Shown here: piece by piece, positions 4,824-30,039 of the stretch
How the letters are laid out: the number at the start of each line of letters is the position of its first letter
Numbering within the stretch: the first letter of the stretch is position 1
NCBI GenBank assembly: GCA_027460535.1
Contig: JAPZAR010000034.1
Location: 1,945-33,944, forward strand
From: Candidatus Methanoperedens sp.
Lineage (GTDB): Archaea > Halobacteriota > Methanosarcinia > Methanosarcinales > Methanoperedenaceae
Reading direction: 5' to 3'
DNA: 32,000 bases
The notes under the pieces: generated by a model
Database searches by the model: none
Seen by the model: the letters and a program-made list of their open reading frames with translations, nothing else
What the model was told of the DNA's origin: nothing
Translations under genes and position numbers: made by a program

Positions 4824-6143
4824 ATGGTACTGGATAAACTGGGCGATTCCCTTCAGGGCGCATTGAAAAAACTTGTCGGAGCGGGCAGGATTGATGAGAA
4901 GATAGTGGACGAGGCGGTCAAGGATATCCAGCGCGCGTTGCTCCAGGCCGATGTGAATGTCAGGCTCGTGATGACATTATCCCAGAAGATAAAGCAGCGA
5001 TCTCTGAAAGAAGAGCCACCAAGCGGAATGAACCCCAGGGAGCATGTCATTCGTATCGTTTATCAGGAATTGATCAACATCCTCGGCAAAACATCAAATG
5101 TAAAGCTTGCCCCGCAGACTATAATGATGGTGGGCCTGCAGGGAAGCGGAAAAACAACAACCACAGCGAAACTCGCCAGGTATTTTCAGAGGAAAGGATT
5201 AAGGACGGCTGTGGTCTGTGCTGATACGTTCAGACCGGGAGCATACGACCAGCTAAAAACATTGTGCGACCGTATGGGAATCTTTTTTTACGGAGAAAAG
5301 GATGTCAAGGATGCTATAGCTATAACGCAGCGAGGGTTGAAGGCTATTGAGAAATTTGATGTCAAAATAATAGATACGGCAGGAAGGCACGCCCTTGAGA
5401 AAGATTTGATAAAAGAAATGGAGGAGATCCACAATATTGCAAAGCCAGACCATAAGCTCCTGGTTATCGATGCTGCCATGGGGCAGCTTGCAAGCGACCA
5501 GGCGGCAGCATTTAACAAGTCTATCGGAATAACAGGCGTGGTCATAACAAAACTCGACGGCACAGCTAAAGGAGGCGGTGCAATGTCCGCGGTCTCGGAG
5601 ACCGATTCCGCAATTGCTTTTATCGGGATAGGTGAGACATCGGAAGACCTCGAAAAGTTCGAAGCGGACAGGTTCATTTCACGGCTTCTTGGAATGGGTG
5701 ATATCAAATCACTTATCGAGAGAGCAGAAGAGACCCTGAAAAGTGAGGACTTGGATGTGGAAAAGATGCTCAAGGGGAGATTTACCCTGATGGATATGTA
5801 TAAACAAATGGAAGCAGTGAACAAGATGGGTCCTTTAAAACAGGTAATGCAAATGCTTCCAATGGGCAAGCTAGGGGTAAATGTGACCGAAGACATGTAT
5901 AATGTGACTCAAGAAAAAATGAAAAGATACAAGTATATAATGGACTCAATGACCGATAAGGAACTTGAGGAACCAAAACATATTAACAGTTCCCGGATCA
6001 TACGGATAGCCCGCGGTTCGGGTACGAAATACGAGGAGGTACGAGAACTTCTGAAATATCATAAAACAATGCAAAAAGCCTTAAGAGGCATGATGGGCAA
6101 CAAATTTAATTTACAAAAAATGATGAAAAAATTTGGAATGTAG
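4824..6143 (+). CDS. srp54: Signal recognition particle protein SRP54
   Basis: 439 aa. It has the GTPase motifs [15 protein letters not shown] and TKLDG, followed by a methionine-rich M domain ([25 protein letters not shown]). Confidence 0.95.
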
Positions 6144-6222: not shown

Positions 6223-7398
6223 ATGGTCACAGATTTAAAAGCATTTGCAAAAACAGCAAAACCATCTGTTGCTGTAGTCGGGCTTGGTGGTGCTGGTTGT
6301 AATATTACGACATGGATCGCAGAAAAAGGAATAACTGGCGGCAGGATTATTGCAGCCAATACGGATGTTAACCATCTTTATGTCCAGAAAGCAGACAAAT
6401 TGGTTCTTCTTGGAGAAAAACTGTGCAAAGGACATGGATGCGGGGGCTTTCCCGAAATGGGAGCCCAGGCGACGAGAGAAAATGTTAATGAATTAAAAGC
6501 TGAGCTAGAAGGTGCAAATCTTGTATTCCTTGTAGCAGGATTGGGCGGTGGTACAGGTACAGGCGCCATGCCGGTAGCTGCTGAAATCACACGCGAACTG
6601 GGGGCTCTGACAATAGGATGCGTGACAATTCCATTCACTATTGAGATGGCAAGAAGAGAGAAAGCAAGAGAAGCCATTGAACTTCTGGCCAAATCCTGCG
6701 ATTCGGTAGTTATAATAGATAACTCGAAATTAAGAGAAGTAGCAGGAAACCTCCCATTAAAAGAGGCACTCAATGTTGCGAACGCACTTGTGGGAGCTTT
6801 TGTAAAGAATCTTACGGACACAATCACACAGCCAAGCCTTGTTAACCTTGACTATGCAGATCTTCGTGCAGTAATGGAACGTGGCGGGGTATCATCTATA
6901 GGGATAGGCGAAGCAGACGGGCAGAACAGGGTTGAGAAAGCAGTTGCGCAGGCTATCAGCACACCGTTGCTTGATGTCCAGGATATATCCGAAAGCTATG
7001 GCGTGCTAGTGCACATCGTGGGCGGCGAAGACCTGACATTGGAAGAGGTCGCAGTCGCGGGCGAACTGATAATGGACAAAGTGCCCAATACCAAGAGGAT
7101 CATCTGGGGCGCGAAAGTGGACAACACGCTGACAGGTGCGGTCAGGGTAATGGCAGTGCTGACAGGCGTTGAGAGCCCGTTCGTATCGGGAAAAGTGAAG
7201 GAAGTTGTGGTGGAGGCGCCGCCGGAACCCGAGATAGTAAGGCCAAAGGTGGAGCCTCCAAGGCCGAAGCCGGTTGTTAAAGTGGAACCACCGAAAGCGG
7301 AGACAAAGAAGGAAGAGAAGGGCACCAATTATATCTGGATCGTAGTTATCCTGATAATAATATTGATCCTGCTCTGGTATTTCACGAGGACCGGTTGA
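6223..7398 (+). CDS. ftsZ: FtsZ-family tubulin-like GTPase paralogue with a C-terminal Pro/Lys linker and a transmembrane anchor
   Basis: AGGAGG lies 6 nt upstream of ATG 6223. It has GLGGAGCN, the tubulin signature GGGTGTGAMPVAAE and the T7-loop NLDYADLRAVM. The tail is PPEPEIVRPKVEPPRPKPVVKVEPPKAETKKEEKG followed by the hydrophobic helix NYIWIVVILIIILILLWYF. Confidence 0.9.
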   Translation: MVTDLKAFAKTAKPSVAVVGLGGAGCNITTWIAEKGITGGRIIAANTDVNHLYVQKADKLVLLGEKLCKGHGCGGFPEMGAQATRENVNELKAELEGANLVFLVAGLGGGTGTGAMPVAAEITRELGALTIGCVTIPFTIEMARREKAREAIELLAKSCDSVVIIDNSKLREVAGNLPLKEALNVANALVGAFVKNLTDTITQPSLVNLDYADLRAVMERGGVSSIGIGEADGQNRVEKAVAQAISTPLLDVQDISESYGVLVHIVGGEDLTLEEVAVAGELIMDKVPNTKRIIWGAKVDNTLTGAVRVMAVLTGVESPFVSGKVKEVVVEAPPEPEIVRPKVEPPRPKPVVKVEPPKAETKKEEKGTNYIWIVVILIIILILLWYFTRTG

Positions 7399-13959: not shown

Positions 13960-14205
13960 TTATTCACGACATTTTTCTTTCATGCCCTGCTTTATGCCCC
14001 ACGATGCCCACATCAAACCCAGTATGGCTATCACTGCCAGAAGCACGACCAGGATAACGGCTATCTTTTGAAAAAGGCTGAATGAAGAAGCGAAGAATGC
14101 AACATAAATTATTGCAAAGATCAACCCGCCGAATAAAACTACTATGGATACAGCAACTCTTGGCGCAAGTCCCGGCGGCACTTCCCGGCTTTCATTTTGG
14201 TTCAT
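13960..14205 (-). CDS. Small two-TM membrane protein
   Basis: 81 aa with two long hydrophobic helices (VAVSIVVLFGGLIFAIIYVAFF, IAVILVVLLAVIAILGLMWA). Confidence 0.5.
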   Translation of the reverse strand: MNQNESREVPPGLAPRVAVSIVVLFGGLIFAIIYVAFFASSFSLFQKIAVILVVLLAVIAILGLMWASWGIKQGMKEKCRE

Positions 14206-14406
14206 ATATTATGCACCTCCTGCCAATCGGATTTTTATGCAATATTATCCACCACTCTTGTACAATGAACATATTTCTAAAACAGTTTCGCTCCCCAATA
14301 AGATTATATGACGGCTGAAGGAGTAATAGTTTTCGATGTAGTTAGGGACCTTTCAAATATACAACAAACCGCAGATAAACGCAGATTTGTTGCTCTTCAG
14401 AAGCGG

Positions 14407-14450
14407 GAGATGCATATTACAAAAAATTATATGCAATTTTCAGTAATATA
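14407..14450. repeat. 44-nt repeat copy A, ending 1 nt before the stop codon of gene 14452..14943
   Basis: GAGATGCATATTACAAAAAATTATATGCAATTTTCAGTAATATA aligns without gaps to 15196..15239, with 36 of 44 positions identical by my hand count. Confidence 0.65.
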
Positions 14451-14451
14451 A

Positions 14452-14943
14452 TCAGGACTCTGACGATGGCCTTTTTTCCCTCAGGCTTGCAATTGATTTT
14501 TCTATATTGGCTTTATATTCGTCTAAATAACGGACTTTGTTGATTGTACTTAAGGCTCTAATGCTTCTAATAAAACCTAACAAATAAAGTAATGTACTCA
14601 TTATACCGATTACAAAGTTAAGAATTATTACAGAATACGAATTTAACATACCGATATAACTATATCCCAAAGTTGTTAATGCGCCAGCAAGAGAGAAAAA
14701 TACCAAAACCTGCAAAATTGAAGTCGAAACCAAATATGATAACTCTTGGGAATTCGAATATTTAGATATTTCTTGAAGCTCTGACTCAAGTTCTTCTATT
14801 CTTGCTGTTGCACTACTTCTTGACCATGCAGCAATCCAATTTTTGACGATGGGTGTAACCAGGTTTCCAATTACAGATAGCAAAACCGCACCTAAGAGGG
14901 ATATTGCCCAGTTAATTTGGTTTAATAAATCGAACAAAGCCAT
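14452..14943 (-). CDS. Membrane protein (163 aa) with an N-terminal TM helix, a short coiled segment and a C-terminal TM bundle
   Basis: ATG at 14943. It has the hydrophobic helices WAISLLGAVLLSVIGNLV, ILQVLVFFSLAGALTTLGY and VIILNFVIGIMSTLLYLLGF, and the charged helix ATARIEELESELQEISKY. AT-rich, with no family recognised. Confidence 0.6.
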   Translation of the reverse strand: MALFDLLNQINWAISLLGAVLLSVIGNLVTPIVKNWIAAWSRSSATARIEELESELQEISKYSNSQELSYLVSTSILQVLVFFSLAGALTTLGYSYIGMLNSYSVIILNFVIGIMSTLLYLLGFIRSIRALSTINKVRYLDEYKANIEKSIASLREKRPSSES

Positions 14944-15195
14944 AATCTCTTCCTCGACATATGTATTACTTAAATTTCATATTAATAAACTTTTGGTTTC
15001 GATAACGAAGGAAAAGGAAAAAAGAAGAATGTACCTGCTTTTTATTGCAGTGCGCCCTATAGAAACGGTCTATTTCTGCAGATAGGTAATAGGATGCTTT
15101 GCATAATAAAATCCAACTGAGACCCTTTATGCGAAGAAGGAAAAGGAAAAAATGAGACCGTTTCAAATCGTGTGGTGAATTGAGACTATCTTTAA

Positions 15196-15239
15196 GAAAT
15201 GAATATTAAAAAAAATTATACGCAATTTCAAATAATAGA
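15196..15239. repeat. 44-nt repeat copy B, ending 1 nt before the stop codon of gene 15241..16041
   Basis: GAAATGAATATTAAAAAAAATTATACGCAATTTCAAATAATAGA sits at the same offset from its stop codon as copy A. Confidence 0.65.
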
Positions 15240-15240
15240 G

Positions 15241-16041
15241 CTACTTCTTTATAGATGGAAATTTAAATTTTAATTGATTTATAATTGCATCATATGATAC
15301 TTCATACTCTGTTCTATAATCCGCTGGGTGAGGAATTTTTCGATTAATAATAGGAATCTCAATATGAATATCAGTTTTTTCATTGTATGTATATTGATTA
15401 AAATAAGTTATATCTGTTATTGGTAATTTTAGAACATTTCCTATAAATAAACAGAAACCAAAGGGATAGTGAATAAATTCAGAAAGTAAATAAAATCCTC
15501 CATTTTCCCATAGGCCGACAATTCCAGAATTGAATAAAATGAGTTCAGTAGTAAGATACATATACACTGAAAAATCAAATGGAAAATTCTGTGAATCTTT
15601 TTGTAAAAGATAATCTTTCAAATCAGGATGAGCCAGTTGAAAATTATTTCCATTTCTTGAGCAAAATATCGCAATTACTTGCTTAAAGAAACGAAGAGGA
15701 TGTACATCCTGTAGTATTATTTCAATAGGTTTTGGTTTTCCAAACATCCGATTATCTGATAAATTACCCCGCTTCATATTATTCGACAAAATCATAGTCC
15801 ATTTTTTGTATTCTTCGCCATATAGATGACCTGTAATGTTATTACAGCTTGAACACAGACTATAATTTCCTACACCTTTTTGCTTTAGCTTACCTTTTTT
15901 AAAATATTTTCCTTCTGTGAGCAAAGGAAGCGCTTGAAACTCTTGTGACCGAAAAAAATTGAATGCCTTCTGCGGAGGCGTATGTTCAAATGATAGTTTA
16001 CTTTGTTTTCCACAAATACAACATGTACCATGTTTGCTCAT
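15241..16041 (-). CDS. HNH-like (HNH_5-type zinc-finger nuclease motif) protein with an unknown C-terminal domain
   Basis: 266 aa, ATG at 16041. The N-terminus CCICGKQSKLSFEHTPPQKAFN...SLCSSCNNITG has the pattern CxxC..EHxxP..N..CxxCN of beta-beta-alpha-metal HNH nucleases. The remaining roughly 190 aa are unrecognised. Very AT-rich. Confidence 0.6.
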   Translation of the reverse strand: MSKHGTCCICGKQSKLSFEHTPPQKAFNFFRSQEFQALPLLTEGKYFKKGKLKQKGVGNYSLCSSCNNITGHLYGEEYKKWTMILSNNMKRGNLSDNRMFGKPKPIEIILQDVHPLRFFKQVIAIFCSRNGNNFQLAHPDLKDYLLQKDSQNFPFDFSVYMYLTTELILFNSGIVGLWENGGFYLLSEFIHYPFGFCLFIGNVLKLPITDITYFNQYTYNEKTDIHIEIPIINRKIPHPADYRTEYEVSYDAIINQLKFKFPSIKK

Positions 16042-23392: not shown

Positions 23393-23426
23393 GGATTTAC
23401 GGATAGAGAATTATAAAATTATTTTA

Positions 23427-23774
23427 TCAGAGGTTCTTATTTCTCCCAACCAGTATTTTTATCTCTTTTTTCAATTCAGGAATATCTTTTCTTACGGTGT
23501 CCCAAACAGCATCCAAATCCACACCAAGATAATCATGGACCAGCTTATCTCTCATCCCAGCCATTTTCCTCCATGGTATATCCGGATATTTTTCTCTCAT
23601 CTCGGTGGATACTCTTTTTGTGGCTTCCCCTACTATTTCAATCTGCCTTACGACACCATCTTGAACCAGATTATTATCCATAAAATCGTCATAGTCCAGG
23701 TCTATGGTATATTCCTCGATTCGGGATATAGCATCCAGAATGTGTCTTAAATAAACAATATCATCTTTCTTCAT
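23427..23774 (-). CDS. hepT: HepT (DUF86/HEPN) toxin, second copy
   Basis: 115 aa. MRDKLVHDY carries Rx4HxY. Its ATG overlaps the MNT stop (ATGA at 23771-23774). Confidence 0.85.
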   Translation of the reverse strand: MKKDDIVYLRHILDAISRIEEYTIDLDYDDFMDNNLVQDGVVRQIEIVGEATKRVSTEMREKYPDIPWRKMAGMRDKLVHDYLGVDLDAVWDTVRKDIPELKKEIKILVGRNKNL

Positions 23775-24055
23775 TCGTAAATTACCTTCATCTCCTTTTT
23801 TATCCTGTCAATCAAGTAAGGACTAATGGACTTTTCAGTCAGCAAATCGACTTTCATACCAAGTGCATCGGAGAGATCCTGCTCTATTCCCACGAGATCG
23901 AGCAGACTTTTCCTCTCTGAAAATTCGACAAGGATATCTATGTCGCTTTTTGGCCTCTCTTCGTCTGTTGCGTAAGAGCCAAAGATGGCTACCTTTTTTA
24001 CGCCGTATTTTTTAATGAGAGAGATGATCTTTTTAAAGAGGGCTTCTTTGTTCAT
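23771..24055 (-). CDS. mntA: MNT-type nucleotidyltransferase antitoxin, second copy
   Basis: 94 aa. AIFGSYATDEERPKSDIDILVEF carries GSX10DXD. Confidence 0.85.
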   Translation of the reverse strand: MNKEALFKKIISLIKKYGVKKVAIFGSYATDEERPKSDIDILVEFSERKSLLDLVGIEQDLSDALGMKVDLLTEKSISPYLIDRIKKEMKVIYE

Positions 24056-24237: not shown

Positions 24238-26517
24238 TTAAATTTTCTTCTCCCTTGCCGCCTTCAGCATCAGCTGCATCTCAGTCCTGGCTACCATCTC
24301 GCGCACAGCCTCCACTGCATCGATATTTGCAGAAATGCTCGTTATCCCAAGCTCCACAAGTCTCTTAGCCACCTTGGGATTGCTCCCTGCCTGCCCGCAG
24401 ATGCTGGTCTTTACGCCCGCCTTGTTGCACTCCACAATAACAAGCTCGATGAGTTTCATAATAGCAGGATGCATCTCATTATACAGATGCGCAACGTGCT
24501 CGTTGTTCCTGTCCACAGCAAGTGTGTATTGCGTGAGGTCGTTTGTGCCAAAGCTCACGAAATCAAGACCTTCAGCTATGAACTGGTCGATTATAAGCGC
24601 TGCTGCAGGTATCTCCACCATTATACCAATATCGGTCTTGTTGAAATCTATCCCTCTTTCGCTCATGAATACCTTGGCCCTCCGCAGCTCCGAAGGATGC
24701 TGAACAAGGGGGATCATAATACCCATATTATTATAGCCGCGTTTGATCAATTCCTTGAATGCTCTCACCTCAAGCTCGAAGTGTTCGGTATCAATAAGAT
24801 CGCGCCTGATGCCGCGGTAACCCAGCATAGGATTAGGCTCGATGGGTTCGCCTTCTCCGCCTTCCATTGCCCTGAACTCATCGGTGGGTGCGTCAAGTGT
24901 TCTTACCCAGACAGGTTTTGGATAGAATGCATCCACCACGGTCTGGATACGTGAGACAAGTTCGTTGACATATTCATCGGCTTTCCCTTCCTTGATATAC
25001 TGTTTGGGGTGCTTTGGAAGCCCGAGTATCATGTGCTCAATGCGCAGGAGCCCAACGCCGTCAGCCTGAGTCTCCACAGCACGCTGGGTAGCTTCGGGAA
25101 TGGAGACGTTCACTTTTACTTCTGTTGCGGTGATAGGTTTTTGTCTGGCAAAAGATACCGCCGTCTTCTCAGGCTGTGTAACATGTGCGGCAATCTCCTT
25201 CTTGCCTTCGAACACAAGCCCTTTCTCCCCATCCACCGTTATTTTCATGCCATCTGACAATAACTGAGTTGCCTTTCGTGTTCCAACTACTGCGGGACAG
25301 CCCAGTTCCCGCGATACTATAGCTGCATGGCATGTCATGCCACCTTCATCTGTTACGATCGCTGCGGCGCGTTTCATAGCCGGGACCATATCAGGCGTGG
25401 TCATGACAGCAACGAGAATGTCGCCCTCCTTGACCTTTCCAAGCTCGCTTGCATCAGAAACGAGTTTCGCCTCGCCATAAGCGATTCCCGGAGAAGCTCC
25501 CAACCCTTCAAGTATGGCCTGGGTTGCCAGTTTTTCTTTCGCTTCTTTTTTCTTCTTTATAGTGGTTATTGGCCTTGACTGGAGCATGTAGATTTCCTTG
25601 TTCTTTATCGCCCATTCCACATCCTGGGGGATGCCGTAAAGGTCCTCCACGACATCTCCGAGTTCAACGAGTTTCAATATCTCATCATCATCAAGCACCT
25701 TTGCGTTTTTCTTCTCTTCAGGCACAGGGAGCTCCACTGTTTTATCGGTTCTTGGGTCTCTGATGTGCATTATGTTTTTTATGGCAATTTTGCGCTCCAG
25801 GATTTTCTTATTGACTTTATCAATAACGTAATAGTCCGGGGAAACAGAGCCAGAGACCACGCTCTCGCCGAGCCCCCATGCGCCTTCGATAATCGTCAGC
25901 GGTTCTCCAGTGGAAGGATGCGATGAGAACATTACCCCTGCTTTTTCTGCGTCGACCATGAGCTGGATTACGGCACAGAGGTTCACTTTTCTGTGGTCAA
26001 AACCCTGTTTTACACGGTAATATATCGCCCGCGCCCCATATAGTGAAGCCCAGCATTTCTTGACCGCTTCAACTACATTCGTTTCGCCTTTGATATTAAG
26101 AAACGTATCCTGCTGACCCGCGAAACTTGCATCGGGCAGGTCCTCAGCTGTGGCACTTGACCTCACTGCCACAAAAACCTCGCTCCCTTCCCGTTTGCAA
26201 AGTTCCCTGTATCTTGCCCTGATGGTTTTTTCAATATCGGGAGGTATTTTTGCTCCCATAATTATTTTTTTTGCATTTTTCTCGGCTTCTCTCAGTATGG
26301 CAGCATCATCAACATTTACTTCGAGTGATTTGAAAAGTTCTTCATTGACCCCATTTTCATCGATGAATCGCCTGAAAGCCTGCGCTGTTACTGCAAATCC
26401 CCGCGGGACAGGAAGCTCAGCATGTAACATTTCCCCTAAACTTGCACCTTTGCCGCCCACTATCGCTATATCCTCTTTCCCAACCTCTTCGAGCCATACA
26501 ACTGTGTCATTTACCAT
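24238..26517 (-). CDS. ppsA: Phosphoenolpyruvate synthase (pyruvate, water dikinase)
   Basis: 759 aa. It has the N-terminal PPDK-type ATP-grasp (VGGKGASLGEM), the phosphohistidine swivel GGMTCHAAIVSRELG and a C-terminal PEP-utilising TIM barrel (FVSFGTNDLTQYTLAVDR). Confidence 0.95.
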   Translation of the reverse strand: MVNDTVVWLEEVGKEDIAIVGGKGASLGEMLHAELPVPRGFAVTAQAFRRFIDENGVNEELFKSLEVNVDDAAILREAEKNAKKIIMGAKIPPDIEKTIRARYRELCKREGSEVFVAVRSSATAEDLPDASFAGQQDTFLNIKGETNVVEAVKKCWASLYGARAIYYRVKQGFDHRKVNLCAVIQLMVDAEKAGVMFSSHPSTGEPLTIIEGAWGLGESVVSGSVSPDYYVIDKVNKKILERKIAIKNIMHIRDPRTDKTVELPVPEEKKNAKVLDDDEILKLVELGDVVEDLYGIPQDVEWAIKNKEIYMLQSRPITTIKKKKEAKEKLATQAILEGLGASPGIAYGEAKLVSDASELGKVKEGDILVAVMTTPDMVPAMKRAAAIVTDEGGMTCHAAIVSRELGCPAVVGTRKATQLLSDGMKITVDGEKGLVFEGKKEIAAHVTQPEKTAVSFARQKPITATEVKVNVSIPEATQRAVETQADGVGLLRIEHMILGLPKHPKQYIKEGKADEYVNELVSRIQTVVDAFYPKPVWVRTLDAPTDEFRAMEGGEGEPIEPNPMLGYRGIRRDLIDTEHFELEVRAFKELIKRGYNNMGIMIPLVQHPSELRRAKVFMSERGIDFNKTDIGIMVEIPAAALIIDQFIAEGLDFVSFGTNDLTQYTLAVDRNNEHVAHLYNEMHPAIMKLIELVIVECNKAGVKTSICGQAGSNPKVAKRLVELGITSISANIDAVEAVREMVARTEMQLMLKAAREKKI

Positions 26518-26950
26518 ATTTTTTCTCCTTTAACGACTTTTGAATTTTATTGAGTTTTTTATCGTAACTTTCAATTGCTATTTTTACCAAGAAAGGCAGT
26601 TTTTCACGGGAAAAGCCAAATTCCTTTACAATATTTTCAAGAAAATAAACGTCGATCTCCTTATGTTGTGCCCTCTCTACCCTGATTGCCTCGATCAAAG
26701 CCACTGTTTTAATAAAATTTTTCACAAACTCAAAGGTTGGTGTCACACTACCGTTTTCAATCCGCGATATAGATTCGCGGCGGAGATTCATTAATTCTCC
26801 AAGTTCTACCTGAGTCATATCATATCTCATCCTGTATTCACGTATCACGTCGCCTGAGTCAGAGTTCAGGATGATCTCAGATGCGATCTCCTTTTCAAAA
26901 GAAACCAGCCACTCCGGGATGTATAAAATGGTTTTAGATGCAGCCTTCAA
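26507..26950 (-). CDS. XRE-family helix-turn-helix transcriptional regulator
   Basis: 147 aa. The HTH_3 pattern is MTQVELGELMNLRRESISRIENGSVTPTFEFV. The start is a TTG at 26950 with GGAGGA just upstream. Its 3' end overlaps the ppsA start by 11 nt. Confidence 0.75.
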   Translation of the reverse strand: MKAASKTILYIPEWLVSFEKEIASEIILNSDSGDVIREYRMRYDMTQVELGELMNLRRESISRIENGSVTPTFEFVKNFIKTVALIEAIRVERAQHKEIDVYFLENIVKEFGFSREKLPFLVKIAIESYDKKLNKIQKSLKEKKYGK

Positions 26951-26961
26951 CTATCCTCCAA

Positions 26962-26990
26962 ATAAATGTTACATATTTAGTCACATTTAT
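26962..26990. promoter_or_regulatory. Inverted repeat (candidate operator) just upstream of the XRE gene
   Basis: ATAAATGT (26962-26969) and ACATTTAT (26983-26990) are exact reverse complements separated by 13 nt. The near arm is 12 nt from the TTG start. Confidence 0.35.
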
Positions 26991-27063
26991 CATTTGCATT
27001 ATGAGGCATGGTTATTATTTAAGAGTTTCTACCCTTTTTCATAAAATAACATGATTTATAGTG

Positions 27064-27675
27064 TCACATCTTTTTACGATTGCTCTTATGAACTTGAGAA
27101 CTACCCTTCGACAATCTAATATTTTCATCCATGATCCCCCTGAATATCAGGTCCTTCTTAACTGCCTTCCTTGCTTCATCGAGTTGCTGTTCAAGCTCCT
27201 GTAGTTTTTCCCCCAGCGTTTCCATTTCAATATCTTTCTTTTCCAGTTCCTGTTCAAGATTTTTGATAGTAACTTCTTGCCGCTGTATTGTGTAAGCCAT
27301 CTTTCCCTTTTTGCTTCGGTTCCCTTCAAGATACCCTGCCCTTGGCTTTTTCTTTTTTGTATCAGCAGGCTCGGAAACAGCTTTTCCTGGACGAGCGTTC
27401 AGGAAAGGTTTGTTTATATGCCTTCCTGATATCCTTTCTATAAAGAACATAGACTCTCCATGCTCTTGCGCTGAAAGCGTCCAGGTGGGTCCATTGTAGC
27501 GTTTTTCCTTATTCGCAAGTTCGAATAATTTTTTGGCAACGTCCCCGCTTATCCAGCCAAGGCTCTCATAGTAGTCAAGCAATCTTTGGAGGTTGTTATG
27601 GCCTACCCTCTCCAGCATAAAGAGAAGCCATTTACGCTGTAGGTATTTTGTGGAGTCGTCAAGTTCTTGCAGCAT
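27064..27675 (-). CDS. FlaD/FlaE (ArlD/E)-domain protein with a basic linker and a C-terminal coiled coil
   Basis: 203 aa. The N-terminal KWLLFMLERVGHNNLQRLLDYYESLGWISGDVAKKLFELA...TWTLSAQEHGESMFFIERISG matches the Arch_fla_DE domain as I remember it. It continues with KKKKPRAGYLEGNRSKKGK and the heptad region IKNLEQELEKKDIEMETLGEKLQELEQQLDEARKA. Its ATG directly follows the actin gene's TAA. Confidence 0.7.
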   Translation of the reverse strand: MLQELDDSTKYLQRKWLLFMLERVGHNNLQRLLDYYESLGWISGDVAKKLFELANKEKRYNGPTWTLSAQEHGESMFFIERISGRHINKPFLNARPGKAVSEPADTKKKKPRAGYLEGNRSKKGKMAYTIQRQEVTIKNLEQELEKKDIEMETLGEKLQELEQQLDEARKAVKKDLIFRGIMDENIRLSKGSSQVHKSNRKKM

Positions 27676-28866
27676 TTACGTGGTTTGCCAGAACTCTTTC
27701 GGCATATCGATTGCCATCTTTAATGCACCAGCCGCGCCTCCGAACACCGGGTCCCGGGTTTTGAGGACCTTGCATCCCCCGATCAATTCCAGTTCATGTT
27801 CCAGGACAGTATCAAGATTTCTTATCTGGCTTCCTCCCCCTGCAATATATAAATTTGAGCGCAGCTCATCCTGGAATTCAGGATCGTAGGTTGATATAAG
27901 CCTGGAAATCCCGCTCACGATATCAGGCAATATGGATTCGCATGCCCTCCTCATCTCCTGTGTGATGGAAAGCTTCAGCACTGAGGCGGCTCTCGGCACT
28001 TCCACTATGATCTCCTCATCAGGATTGCCAACAAAAGAGTACTTCTCCTTCCACAACCTGGCCATTTCCCGGGTGACCCTGAGCTTTGTATGGTTTTTTG
28101 TTACAAGCTTAACAAATTCCCTGTCTATGAAGTCGCCAGCTTTGGTGCTGCTTATCTGATCTTCCGGGTTCGGTCGCGCGCCATGCACCCTGCATAGATC
28201 CGTGGTAGCTGCCCCGATATCCACAATCAATGAATGTTCAAATTTTCCTAAATTGTACGCAACACAGAGCGGTTCGCTCGCCACCATTATCCCATCAAAG
28301 AAATCTTTAGCCATTTCGGGTATGATTTTTTTATTTTGTACGCTTGCCTGGGCAGGGACTCCTATGATGGCATATTTTCTTACATCCCTATCCGCATTGA
28401 CCGATCTGAGTACGAATTCGACTAATCCTTTAGCCGCCTCGATGCTCTTTCTCTGGATTTTCAAAACCCCTCTCTCGATCGGCCTGTAAAGTTTGAGGGC
28501 ATCTCTGTGCTTAAGTGCTTCTTCCCCGAAAAGGTGCTCCTTCTTTAAAAACTTAGATGCCACCGCATCCTTTGGAGCGCCCACAATGCTCAGAATGCTG
28601 TTCTTCTTGCCGTCGCTCGTAGAGATAGCAGTGTGATTTGTACCCAGATCGATCCCTATGAATAGGTTCTTTTTCTCATTCACCCCTGATACATTCGATC
28701 TCCGGATTTTTTTCTTATATGCCAAATTGTATTCCTCATTATTATAATGAACTAAGAAAAGTACACTCTGCTTAAATATATAGTTTACGTGACATAAGTC
28801 TCTTGCTGGATAATTTGAATCCTCAAACCCGGTTGGGCAGTTATAGACCGGAATATTCATGAACAA
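27676..28866 (-). CDS. Actin-fold (ASKHA) cytomotive ATPase, MamK/ParM/MreB-like
   Basis: It has the phosphate-1 motif FIGIDLGTNHTAI, the phosphate-2 motif LIVDIGAATTDL and the adenosine motif LYIAGGGSQIRNL. The track start (TTG at 28866) adds about 60 non-conserved residues, and a TATA-like ACTATATATTTAAG lies inside that extension. An in-frame GTG at 28683 (VNEKKNLFIGIDLGT) or TTG at 28725 is more plausible. Confidence 0.85.
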   Translation of the reverse strand: MFMNIPVYNCPTGFEDSNYPARDLCHVNYIFKQSVLFLVHYNNEEYNLAYKKKIRRSNVSGVNEKKNLFIGIDLGTNHTAISTSDGKKNSILSIVGAPKDAVASKFLKKEHLFGEEALKHRDALKLYRPIERGVLKIQRKSIEAAKGLVEFVLRSVNADRDVRKYAIIGVPAQASVQNKKIIPEMAKDFFDGIMVASEPLCVAYNLGKFEHSLIVDIGAATTDLCRVHGARPNPEDQISSTKAGDFIDREFVKLVTKNHTKLRVTREMARLWKEKYSFVGNPDEEIIVEVPRAASVLKLSITQEMRRACESILPDIVSGISRLISTYDPEFQDELRSNLYIAGGGSQIRNLDTVLEHELELIGGCKVLKTRDPVFGGAAGALKMAIDMPKEFWQTT

Positions 28867-28931
28867 TTCCGAAATCTATATTAAGCAGGACTAAAAAACA
28901 GTATGCAGGATAGATAAGAAGTGCATTTCCA

Positions 28932-29306
28932 TTGAACACATATACCTTGTACAGATACATAGAATTTCTAATGTTTGCATTATATTTGATTTTCATTTTC
29001 TATTCTATTCAAATCTGGTTCTTATGGAAGGATATAGATAAAAACAAATTAACATTAAATACCTTTGTCAGTGATTCATTTTTTAAGAAAAATTGCCTTT
29101 ATGTCTTCCTTTTCAGTATATTTTTTATGATCCATGAATTTTTTGAAGGGATAAGTCTCGCGGATTCCGTGGTATATTTTGAGTTTTTTGATATGCTTGC
29201 AGTTTTCGGGTTATTATTGTTCGCACATCAGTGGTATACGGTGTTAAAAGCATGCGCAAGTAAAAAATCTCTGCCAAAAGAGTTGATTGACTCTATCAAG
29301 CAGTAA
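28932..29306 (+). CDS. Small polytopic membrane protein
   Basis: 124 aa with three hydrophobic helices. The start is a TTG, with an internal ATG at codon 14. Divergent from the actin-like gene. AT-rich. Confidence 0.45.
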   Translation: MNTYTLYRYIEFLMFALYLIFIFYSIQIWFLWKDIDKNKLTLNTFVSDSFFKKNCLYVFLFSIFFMIHEFFEGISLADSVVYFEFFDMLAVFGLLLFAHQWYTVLKACASKKSLPKELIDSIKQ

Positions 29307-29391
29307 ATTGTTTTCAAAAGAAATTCCCCTTTGCATTCGGTACTTATTTATACAGGGCTCATAATAACAATAAGTCGGACTGATATCAAAA

Positions 29392-30039
29392 ATGATTATA
29401 GTCAGTGAAGACGAAGATGATAGCGACTCTAGTCCGTTGTTTTTTTTAAGGCAGCCAGTGCAGGAAAGCGTACTTAATATAACCCATGACTACCGGTATT
29501 TGAGGATGGGATATTATGTATCTGCTCATGCGGAAACCTTTGGAGTAGAAGTCACACCAAGCTGTACGGAAATAATGGATGCATACCGGAATCCACTTTT
29601 GATCGAGAAAGCGAGAAGGAATGGGTTGCGAACCAATGGTTACAGGCTGATAACTAAGCCAAAGGATGATTTGGCCACCCCTGCCCTTTTATTCGCCGTA
29701 AATCCTTTTACGAACAACTCGATGAAAGTCGTGAAGTCAGGTTCAAGATTACCGGGCATTATAAAGAAAATGAGCTTTGACGCCAGGTTTCCTGTTTCAC
29801 TGCATCCTCTCACTGGAGAAGTCCTGGAAATAATCCAGATGTTCGGGGAATCGAATAACGATGAGACATCGGAATTTGCGAAGAAATTTTTTGAGGTATT
29901 CAATATTCCGATATGCAAGTTGGTCGTTCAGGTAGATGACGGACAGGTTGTTTTGAATCACTGCGAACCTGCCATGAAAAAAGAAGTAAAGTGGGATATC
30001 GTGCATGAGAAAGTGCTCGAAATAAGAAGGAAAAATTAA
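29392..30039 (+). CDS. RLAN (RimK-like ATP-grasp N-terminal) domain protein
   Basis: 215 aa. YRYLRMGYYVSAHAETFGVEVTPS resembles the RLAN core (Y.s.GYY.SLLAEARG..v.Ps) that is usually fused in front of RimK-like ligases. The ATP-grasp gene follows 35 nt downstream. Confidence 0.7.
   Translation: MIIVSEDEDDSDSSPLFFLRQPVQESVLNITHDYRYLRMGYYVSAHAETFGVEVTPSCTEIMDAYRNPLLIEKARRNGLRTNGYRLITKPKDDLATPALLFAVNPFTNNSMKVVKSGSRLPGIIKKMSFDARFPVSLHPLTGEVLEIIQMFGESNNDETSEFAKKFFEVFNIPICKLVVQVDDGQVVLNHCEPAMKKEVKWDIVHEKVLEIRRKN

Follow-up and report, generated by a model that had tools for sequence, protein, structure and literature searches.

A gene pair for a MamK-type actin-like ATPase and an ArlD/E-domain coiled-coil partner in Candidatus Methanoperedens: a candidate filament and adaptor module

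Both bacteria (ParM-ParR, and MamK with MamJ or the Mad proteins) and Crenarchaeota (crenactin with the arcadins) have actin-like filaments that work with dedicated adaptors, and to our knowledge very little is known about the cytoskeletons of archaea related to methanogens and methanotrophs. Here, we describe two abutting genes in a stretch of 32,000 nucleotides (the window) from a metagenome-assembled genome (MAG) of Candidatus Methanoperedens. Translation of the open reading frames (ORFs) places both genes on the minus strand, where the upstream gene encodes an actin-like ATPase and the downstream gene encodes a small partner protein with an ArlD/E (FlaD/E)-type domain. The features of the locus in window coordinates, with confidence values (predicted local distance difference test, pLDDT) from AlphaFold2 (AF2) models, are the following.

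28774..28788, minus strand: promoter-like element GTAAACTATATATTT, resembling a TATA box with transcription factor B recognition element (TATA/BRE-like), upstream of the two-gene operon
28732..28738, minus strand: Shine-Dalgarno-like TGAGGAA, 6 nt 5' of the TTG start
27676..28725, minus strand: predicted MamK-family actin-like ATPase, 349 aa plus stop; the NCBI gene model agrees
ATPase residues 1-20, minus strand: N-terminal tail, basic, low confidence
ATPase residues 21-348, minus strand: actin fold in the AF2 model
27673..27678, minus strand: TAA-ATG junction (actin stop 27676-27678, partner ATG 27673-27675; 0 nt apart)
27064..27675, minus strand: partner protein, 203 aa
27421..27675, minus strand: ArlD/E (FlaD/E)-type four-helix domain, partner residues 1-85, Pfam PF04659
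27313..27420, minus strand: variable disordered linker, partner residues 86-121 (AF2 pLDDT below 50-60, low column conservation)
27106..27312, minus strand: conserved C-terminal coiled-coil module (C-module), partner residues 122-190 (single long helix, pLDDT 87-95)
27064..27105, minus strand: variable, mostly basic tail, partner residues 191-203 plus stop (low conservation)

An earlier reading of the window from its sequence only had started the ATPase at position 28866. That position is merely the start of the longest ORF, and we place the true start at the TTG of 28725, since GTAAACTATATATTT falls inside the longer ORF and precedes both a Shine-Dalgarno-like GAGG and a conserved TTG/ATG-GCA start. 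The 15-mer GTAAACTATATATTT occurs a single time in the window (0.13 expected by chance) and in exactly one copy in each of 29 related loci from both synteny contexts described below, at a constant position about 50-65 nt upstream of a conserved ATAATGAGGRA and the TTG/ATG-GCA start of the actin gene; ATAATGAGGRA is itself kept before this start in the orthologous loci. From its position and conservation, GTAAACTATATATTT looks like an archaeal TATA/BRE-type promoter. At the other end of the ATPase gene, the TAA stop directly abuts the partner ATG (TAAATG), just as the sequence-only reading had described, and the same 0-nt spacing (TAGATG or TAAATG) was found in 43 of 51 distinct orthologous pairs. 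Judged from these sequence features, the two genes form a translationally coupled operon with its own promoter. This region is compositionally native, and the partner is 100% identical to NCBI O8C66_06260 (contig JAPZAT010000033, GCA_027460495.1).

Comparison of the ATPase with the NCBIfam models gave 379.5 bits for MamK, 183.7 for BeeR, 56.3 for MreB and 29.4 for salactin. A sequence search of the PDB returned MamK (5LJW; 268 bits, E=8e-79, near full length), and further matches were to BeeR (112 bits), MreB (45 bits) and Arp2 (29 bits). The AF2 model of the ATPase (pLDDT 89.7, predicted template modelling score 0.86, with residues 1-17 disordered) had as its top Foldseek match the MamK filament subunit 5LJV (template modelling score 0.95, root mean square deviation 1.7 A, 38% identity, E=5e-41), followed by BeeR (E=6.5e-32) and the eukaryotic actins (~1e-22). 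An orthologue with 68% identity (P0064) is named ‘MamK family actin-like protein’ by NCBI. The nucleotide-binding motifs FIGIDLGT (phosphate-1), VDIGAATTD (phosphate-2) and AGGGS (adenosine) are all present in the translation, which confirms the full actin/ASKHA motif set claimed for this ORF; all peptide motifs quoted at that time were found in the ORF translations. The Glu of an S-E-P motif in the ATPase aligns with E143 of MamK in the PDB alignment, and we take E143 to be the catalytic Glu of Magnetospirillum MamK.

The N-terminal third of the ATPase had also been judged closer to MamK/ParM than to MreB. The MamK part of this judgement holds in NCBIfam, the PDB and Foldseek, but the ParM part does not (Pfam ParM_N, E=0.04). 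Identity with MreB was rejected because the curated NCBIfam models gave 56.3 bits (cutoff 293) and 44.2 bits (cutoff 366), and we ascribe the Pfam MreB_Mbl match (65.6 bits) to the shared fold. Salactin identity was likewise rejected (NCBIfam NF053533, 29.4 bits against a cutoff of 400); the volactin and salactin matches in Pfam were weak or absent, and PADLOC gave no match for either the ATPase or the partner. On the evidence of its sequence, the ATPase belongs to the MamK family, and membership of MreB is excluded. By homology, it should polymerise in an ATP-dependent manner.

The partner matched Pfam Arch_fla_DE (PF04659) at residues 11-84 (E=2.1e-17; 63.2 bits against a gathering cutoff of 21) in an alignment that spans profile positions 17-96 of 96, so the FlaD/E domain proposed earlier for its N-terminus was borne out. 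All 22 of 22 close homologues of the partner carry the same Pfam domain. In the AF2 model (pLDDT 78.8), a four-helix N-terminal domain (residues 7-82; helices at 7-24, 26-39, 44-56 and 69-82; block pLDDT 77-89) is followed by a disordered linker at about residues 85-114 and by one long helix of 88 residues (115-202). Conservation among 46 orthologues peaks at residues 16-42, 57-84, 122-146 and 177-190. The last two peaks carry the motifs R-x-E-V-T-I-K-N-L-E-x-E-L-E and I-F/Y-x-x-I-M/L-x-x-N-I-R-L, respectively, and the C-module motif R..V.I.NL..[ED]L was found once per locus in 58 loci. A profile search with the C-module alone returned just 12 short fragmentary gene calls and no new architectures.

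Between these conserved parts, the linker of the window partner contains PRAGYLEG (family consensus PREGYLE). A lysine-rich linker, a coiled coil and a basic tail had been described in the sequence-only reading; all three are present in the window partner, where the linker has a net charge of +8 and the tail +5, but the lysine-richness of the linker is peculiar to this sequence, as the linker charge across the 46 orthologues has a median of 0 (range -3 to +6). The tail varies across orthologues from 1 to 22 aa in length and from 0 to +7 in charge (median +4). No significant homologue of the partner was found in the PDB (Foldseek best E=2.1; hmmsearch best E=0.0045, to a coiled coil), and Pfam, NCBIfam, the PDB sequence search and Foldseek found no ribbon-helix-helix (RHH), helix-turn-helix (HTH) or other DNA-binding domain. 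A relationship of the partner coiled coil to FlaC was considered and rejected (E=0.013, below cutoff); because the match is weak, we regard it as non-specific coiled-coil similarity.

To follow the pair through related genomes, we used a genome scan with the partner alignment, limited to two peptide patterns. In 24 of 24 GTDB species-representative loci with a full-length-type partner, all from Methanoperedens, Methanoperedenaceae or unclassified Methanosarcinales MAGs, the actin gene lies directly upstream of the partner gene. A metagenome scan with the C-module added 26 contigs, and actin is present in all 24 of those that extend upstream. Clustering of the ORFs revealed two unrelated synteny contexts in the family. 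In the context of the window, an HTH_3 gene and phosphoenolpyruvate (PEP) synthase come after the pair; in the second context, represented by strain BLZ2 and L007, PNPOx-type genes take their place. Orthologues lie at L032 in strain Mnv1 and at L027 in strain BLZ2. Nothing but the pair and its promoter is common to the two contexts, and the pair alone is shared between both Methanoperedenaceae contexts and the marine anaerobic methanotrophic archaea of group 2 (ANME-2). The gene-neighbourhood check thus upheld the pairing, with the two genes adjacent in every related genome examined and in differing contexts. The neighbours are housekeeping genes, and no mam or mad-type gene was found in the window or in the related loci. 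Database labels of the pair genes range over ‘rod shape-determining protein’, ‘MamK family actin-like protein’, ‘Archaeal flagella protein’ and ‘hypothetical’, and no description of this pairing of an actin with an ArlD/E-domain protein was found in the literature searched.

Around the pair, the HTH_3 (Xre-type) regulator gene of the window (26507-26950, minus strand) overlaps the start of the PEP synthase gene (24238-26517, minus strand) by 11 nt. The order HTH_3 then PpsA directly downstream of the pair is kept in 20 related loci and is absent from the second synteny context. A multihaem cytochrome gene lies between the partner and HTH genes in L001, L013, L014 and L018. On the other side of the pair, a divergent ORF of 124 aa (28932-29306, plus strand) with many hydrophobic segments has no Pfam match and no NCBI gene call; it is kept upstream of actin in 7 loci, all in the synteny context of the window (context A).

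The marine ANME-2 actin is 55-56% identical to the Methanoperedens actin and is followed downstream by a giant partner gene. The ANME-2 partner of 1,940 aa (L074:9103-14925; JGI Ga0369713_1000478) consists, in order, of an ArlD/E-like N-terminal domain, ~1,750 aa of E/K/L-rich coiled coil and the C-module IHRLQVTIVNLNRELEKRD...KLFYQNVKIK, where it ends without a basic tail. A further orthologue (L008:1321-5255) carries a precomputed PF04659 annotation. Since a coiled coil rises ~0.15 nm per residue, the rod would be ~260 nm long in ANME-2 and ~13 nm long in Methanoperedens. The linker motif P-x-E-G-Y-x-E is present as a single copy in the Methanoperedens partners and as three copies in the ANME-2 partner, where the linker repeats ‘P.EGYENFDEL.SFF..LKK’ start at aa 139, 197 and 274; the SFFxxLKK repeats resemble short linear binding motifs.

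The unclassified contig L009/L072 encodes an actin of 54% identity and, after a gap of 1 nt, a 206-aa all-coiled-coil protein that retains the C-module without an ArlD/E domain. The C-modules of the Methanoperedens, ANME-2 and L009 partners align with one single-residue gap and share invariant R, V, N, L, L and N. Because the L009 partner keeps the C-module without the ArlD/E domain, it is the C-module, not the ArlD/E domain, that tracks the actin, and the N-terminal domain is exchangeable. A similarity in the tail of the L010 partner (DLFAKIMKDNRTL) does not align in register with the family motif and was treated as unproven.

An exhaustive search of representatives yielded 840 actin relatives, 126 of them at E<=1e-30. 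The nearest relatives after ANME-2 are proteins of 520-1,232 aa (P0154-P0167; L073:4864-8562) in which a MamK-like domain at the C-terminus is fused to a coiled coil at the N-terminus and a long disordered, charged region; their N-terminal extensions have no Pfam match. In a rough neighbour-joining (NJ) tree, which has no support values and is mostly unlabelled, the L009, Methanoperedens and ANME-2 actins form one clade, the long forms form a neighbouring clade, and the Magnetospirillum MamK, Nitrospira and Acidobacteriota sequences lie elsewhere. In L073:8694-13716 and L072:10001-20322, MamK-like actin genes stand beside genes for Roadblock/LC7 proteins, an Arf/Ras-like small GTPase, KaiC-like ATPases and a T2SSE-type ATPase, and in L072 the small GTPase is fused to a KaiC-like domain. 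This neighbourhood may be a polarity or motility-regulation set resembling MglA/MglB.

The relation of the partner to archaellum proteins was examined through its N-terminal domain, which keeps the canonical ArlD/E signature W-L-x-F-L-L-E-R-V-G ... Y-Y ... G-W-I-S and is 38-45% identical to the canonical FlaD/E domains of the archaellum loci L035-L039. Against these domains, the window domain scored 51-74 bits (46-74 bits for three Methanoperedens partners together); against the ANME-2 N-terminal domain, the Methanoperedens partners scored just 31-40 bits. The loci that matched the N-terminal domain only in the genome scan (L035-L043) are without actin, and those canonical loci that were examined have FlaC followed by FlaD/E (L036) or a FlaC-FlaD/E fusion beside a KaiC-like ATPase and a methyl-accepting chemotaxis protein (L037). 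The fusion gene (L037:4048-5136) is from Methanoperedens MAG LC 1, in which the same scan found no actin-partner locus. The partner, with a domain above the Pfam threshold and a coiled coil, recalls this fusion, but its domain order is reversed. In the functional sense, the partner is not an ArlD/E protein: unlike canonical ArlD/E, it lies outside the archaellum (arl) operon, carries a further, specific module and is coupled to an actin gene in all cases.

Studies in Haloferax have shown that ArlD and ArlCE are mutually dependent for their localisation at the pole, dock mainly via the KaiC-like ArlH, and recruit CheF, and that a fraction of ArlD/ArlCE reaches the pole without the motor via an unidentified factor, maybe the polar cap (PMC7534055). 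Methanoperedenaceae occur in three morphotypes, namely coccobacilli, planktonic rods that up-regulate archaellum genes, and cells filled with polyhydroxyalkanoate (PHA) (PMC13046784). That review of the Methanoperedenaceae, from 2026, does not mention actin or a cytoskeleton (PMC13046784).

We consider it probable that the pair encodes a filament with a dedicated adaptor. The fuller proposal, in which the adaptor is also given a polarity and a target, is offered only as a possibility. In that proposal, the MamK-family ATPase would polymerise into an ATP-dependent filament, as its homologues suggest, and the partner would act as a coiled-coil tether with two conserved ends, dimerising through its helix. 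The C-module and the terminal helix would engage the filament, by analogy with ParR and arcadin-2, which do so through C-terminal helices, and the rod between the two end modules would set the length of the tether. The ArlD/E-type domain, presumably derived from the archaellum switch complex, would be the anchor or cargo end. Because the C-module tracks the actin and the N-terminal domain is exchangeable, this assignment is more likely than the opposite one. The FlaD/E domain had been suggested to serve as a docking or a filament-binding adaptor; the docking or anchor role is the one we favour, with the filament-facing end more plausibly in the C-module. The ArlD/E domain may attach the filaments to an ArlH/ArlCDE-type or polar-cap-like assembly or may self-assemble into one, and the tether system would probably be connected with the motile rod morphotype of Methanoperedenaceae. 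The most specific version, that a MamK-type filament is coupled via an exapted ArlD/E domain to a polar motility/chemotaxis platform or ‘polar cap’ in methanotrophic Methanosarcinales, is in our estimate unlikely.

Several observations weigh against a MamK-type filament with an archaellum-derived anchor. The ATPase score against the NCBIfam MamK model NF040964 (379.5 bits) is slightly under the curated cutoff of 400. At the position of MamK A278, the ATPase has an Asp (D274 region, PEFQD), and the substitution A278D makes Magnetospirillum MamK non-polymerising according to the title of PDB entry 5LJW. We rejected the native Asp as a sign of a non-polymerising protein: the equivalent column is highly variable among 74 family sequences (E 13, D 11, A 10), and since D/E are commonest there across the family, the Asp is not diagnostic. 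The N-terminal domains of the ANME-2 and Methanoperedens partners are just 22-26% identical, so the target of this domain may differ between the lineages. Genes for the archaellum, KaiC-like proteins or chemotaxis were not found in the window, which agrees with the earlier statement that it holds no archaellin or ArlH/I/J gene; magnetosome genes were likewise not found. A second, canonical ArlD/E locus was found in 0 of 24 pair-bearing genomes, and because the scan is pattern-limited, this absence is weak evidence. We also did not rely on a complementary distribution of the pair and canonical ArlD/E, given the two-pattern scan and the archaellum genes reported in Methanoperedenaceae; the limited patterns of the scan and the incompleteness of the MAGs probably produced it.

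Among the other explanations, the pair could position or partition an intracellular inclusion, such as PHA granules in Methanoperedenaceae or a different inclusion in ANME-2, in a MamK-like manner, with the ArlD/E domain used for oligomerisation or granule docking and without a link to motility. The one function characterised for the MamK family is to position organelles via adaptors and coiled-coil proteins (PMC12748827; PMC5597319), one Methanoperedenaceae morphotype stores PHA (PMC13046784), the pair is not part of an archaellum locus, and the long ANME-2 coiled coil suits a tether. However, PHA, phasin and magnetosome genes are unlinked to the pair in all contexts examined, the N-terminal domain retains the canonical ArlD/E signature instead of diverging freely, and an amphipathic or membrane-anchoring segment is absent; we judge inclusion positioning to be rather unlikely. 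We give about the same weight to a shape-determining scaffold, in which filaments bundled or cross-linked by a dimeric partner would support the rod form in Methanoperedens or the cell architecture in ANME-2. The switch of Methanoperedenaceae between coccobacilli and rods (PMC13046784) would fit a scaffold, as would the 1,940-aa ANME-2 partner, a coiled coil of the filament-forming kind, and the fusion of close actin relatives to long coiled-coil and disordered N-terminal extensions; no other candidate for a shape determinant was found in the literature searched. Yet MamK-family filaments have no known role in shape, and the pair is kept in ANME-2, whose cells are cocci. Moreover, the actin and the partner have no membrane-binding helix and no envelope-synthesis neighbours, and simple bundling would not need a conserved globular ArlD/E domain.

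Partition of DNA in the manner of ParMRC or salactin, with the partner binding DNA via its basic linker or tail and the filament moving chromosomes or extrachromosomal elements apart by pushing or pulling, appears improbable. The order of actin then small adaptor does mirror parM-parR, the linker and tail of the window partner have net charges of +8 and +5, salactin, the archaeal family nearest MamK, affects DNA partitioning (PMC10746226), and PHROGs gave a weak generic ‘partition protein’ match on the actin fold of the ATPase. But no centromere-like or iterated repeats were found in 26400-29500, and the short repeats seen there, in two copies each, are attributable to chance. RHH, HTH or other DNA-binding domains were not found in the partner, and the salactin model gave just 29 bits. 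The basic linker is unconserved (median charge 0 across 46 orthologues), the ANME-2 partner lacks the basic tail, and the locus is chromosomal, compositionally native and in housekeeping contexts. DNA partition is therefore disfavoured on the absence of repeats and of a DNA-binding fold, the unconserved basic linker and the chromosomal context, and the earlier suggestion that the basic region binds DNA in a segregation-like role is weakened. Least probable of all is that the adjacency is only historical and the two genes act independently. Synteny within one family can be passively inherited; against this, the adjacency has outlasted rearrangement into two unrelated contexts as well as divergence to ANME-2 (actin 55% and partner N-terminal domain about 25% identical), stop and start abut in 43 of 51 pairs, and the C-module always accompanies the actin.

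The filament with a dedicated adaptor, which we prefer to these alternatives, has its nearest known system in MamK with its adaptors and coiled-coil network. MamK and its adaptors (MamJ in Magnetospirillum; Mad20/23/25/26 and Mad28 in deep-branching magnetotactic bacteria) share the actin family with the pair, as the top match by sequence, hidden Markov model and structure, and a filament with non-enzymatic coiled-coil or adaptor proteins is a theme common to both (PMC12748827). The pair differs from the MamK systems in its archaeal host and in having no magnetosome gene cluster. Its adaptor is unrelated to the NCBIfam Mam/Mad models at the thresholds used and has an archaellum-derived domain instead, and its actin clade is separate from Magnetospirillum MamK in the rough NJ tree.

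ParM-ParR-parC and AlfA-AlfB share with the pair the order of an actin-like ATPase followed by a small adaptor, which is presumed to contact the filament by a C-terminal helix; unlike ParM-ParR-parC, the pair has no centromere repeats and no DNA-binding fold, is at a chromosomal site and has an actin of the MamK family. Crenactin is likewise an archaeal actin homologue with genomically linked small partners, among which arcadin-2 is reported to bind crenactin through its C-terminal peptide (PMC5173319). In contrast, no crenactin structure was among the PDB sequence matches of the ATPase, its Foldseek matches to eukaryote-like actins are far weaker than that to MamK, and the partner architecture and the lineage (Methanosarcinales here) differ. 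By analogy, then, ParM-ParR and crenactin-arcadin resemble the pair in logic, and their parts are not homologous to it. Salactin and volactin are likewise archaeal actin-fold proteins of Methanotecta, and some actin relatives of the ATPase have long disordered N-terminal tails as in salactin, but no ArlD/E partner has been reported for salactin or volactin in the literature searched.

Elsewhere, the window contains housekeeping genes (UbiD/UbiX, SRP54, FtsZ, Hef, FKBP, FBPase, PpsA and RimK). The FtsZ gene (6223-7398, plus strand; Tubulin and FtsZ_C domains) is beside SRP54 (4824-6143), ~20 kb from the actin operon, and is not linked to the pair in other loci. A nucleotidyltransferase (MNT) and HepT-like toxin-antitoxin pair was recognised at 23771-24055 (minus strand) and in the gene upstream (~23400-23770) by correspondence with L044 8024-8652, and similar MNT/HEPN or PIN modules are at the corresponding place in related loci. 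At 14001-16000, the GC content drops to 0.336, compared with about 0.40-0.48 elsewhere; the ORFs of this stretch (14452-14943 and 15241-16041, both on the minus strand) have no Pfam match, and it may be a foreign or fast-evolving segment.

The pair is a candidate for the cell biology of the cocci, motile rods and PHA-filled forms of Methanoperedenaceae, and it shows an archaellum domain reused, unexpectedly, in a setting other than the archaellum. It also offers a possible handle on the polar factor bound by ArlD/E-domain proteins (PMC7534055). In ANME-2, the rod bridging the two end modules would have a length comparable to the cell radius. Both proteins of the Methanoperedens pair are small, soluble-looking and heterologously expressible, which makes the hypothesis directly testable. 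If the coupling to a polar platform were true, the module would organise cell polarity in the transition from coccoid cells to motile rods, the C-module would be a new class of archaeal actin-binding element, and the pair would represent a previously unrecognised actin cytoskeleton in Methanoperedenaceae and marine ANME-2.

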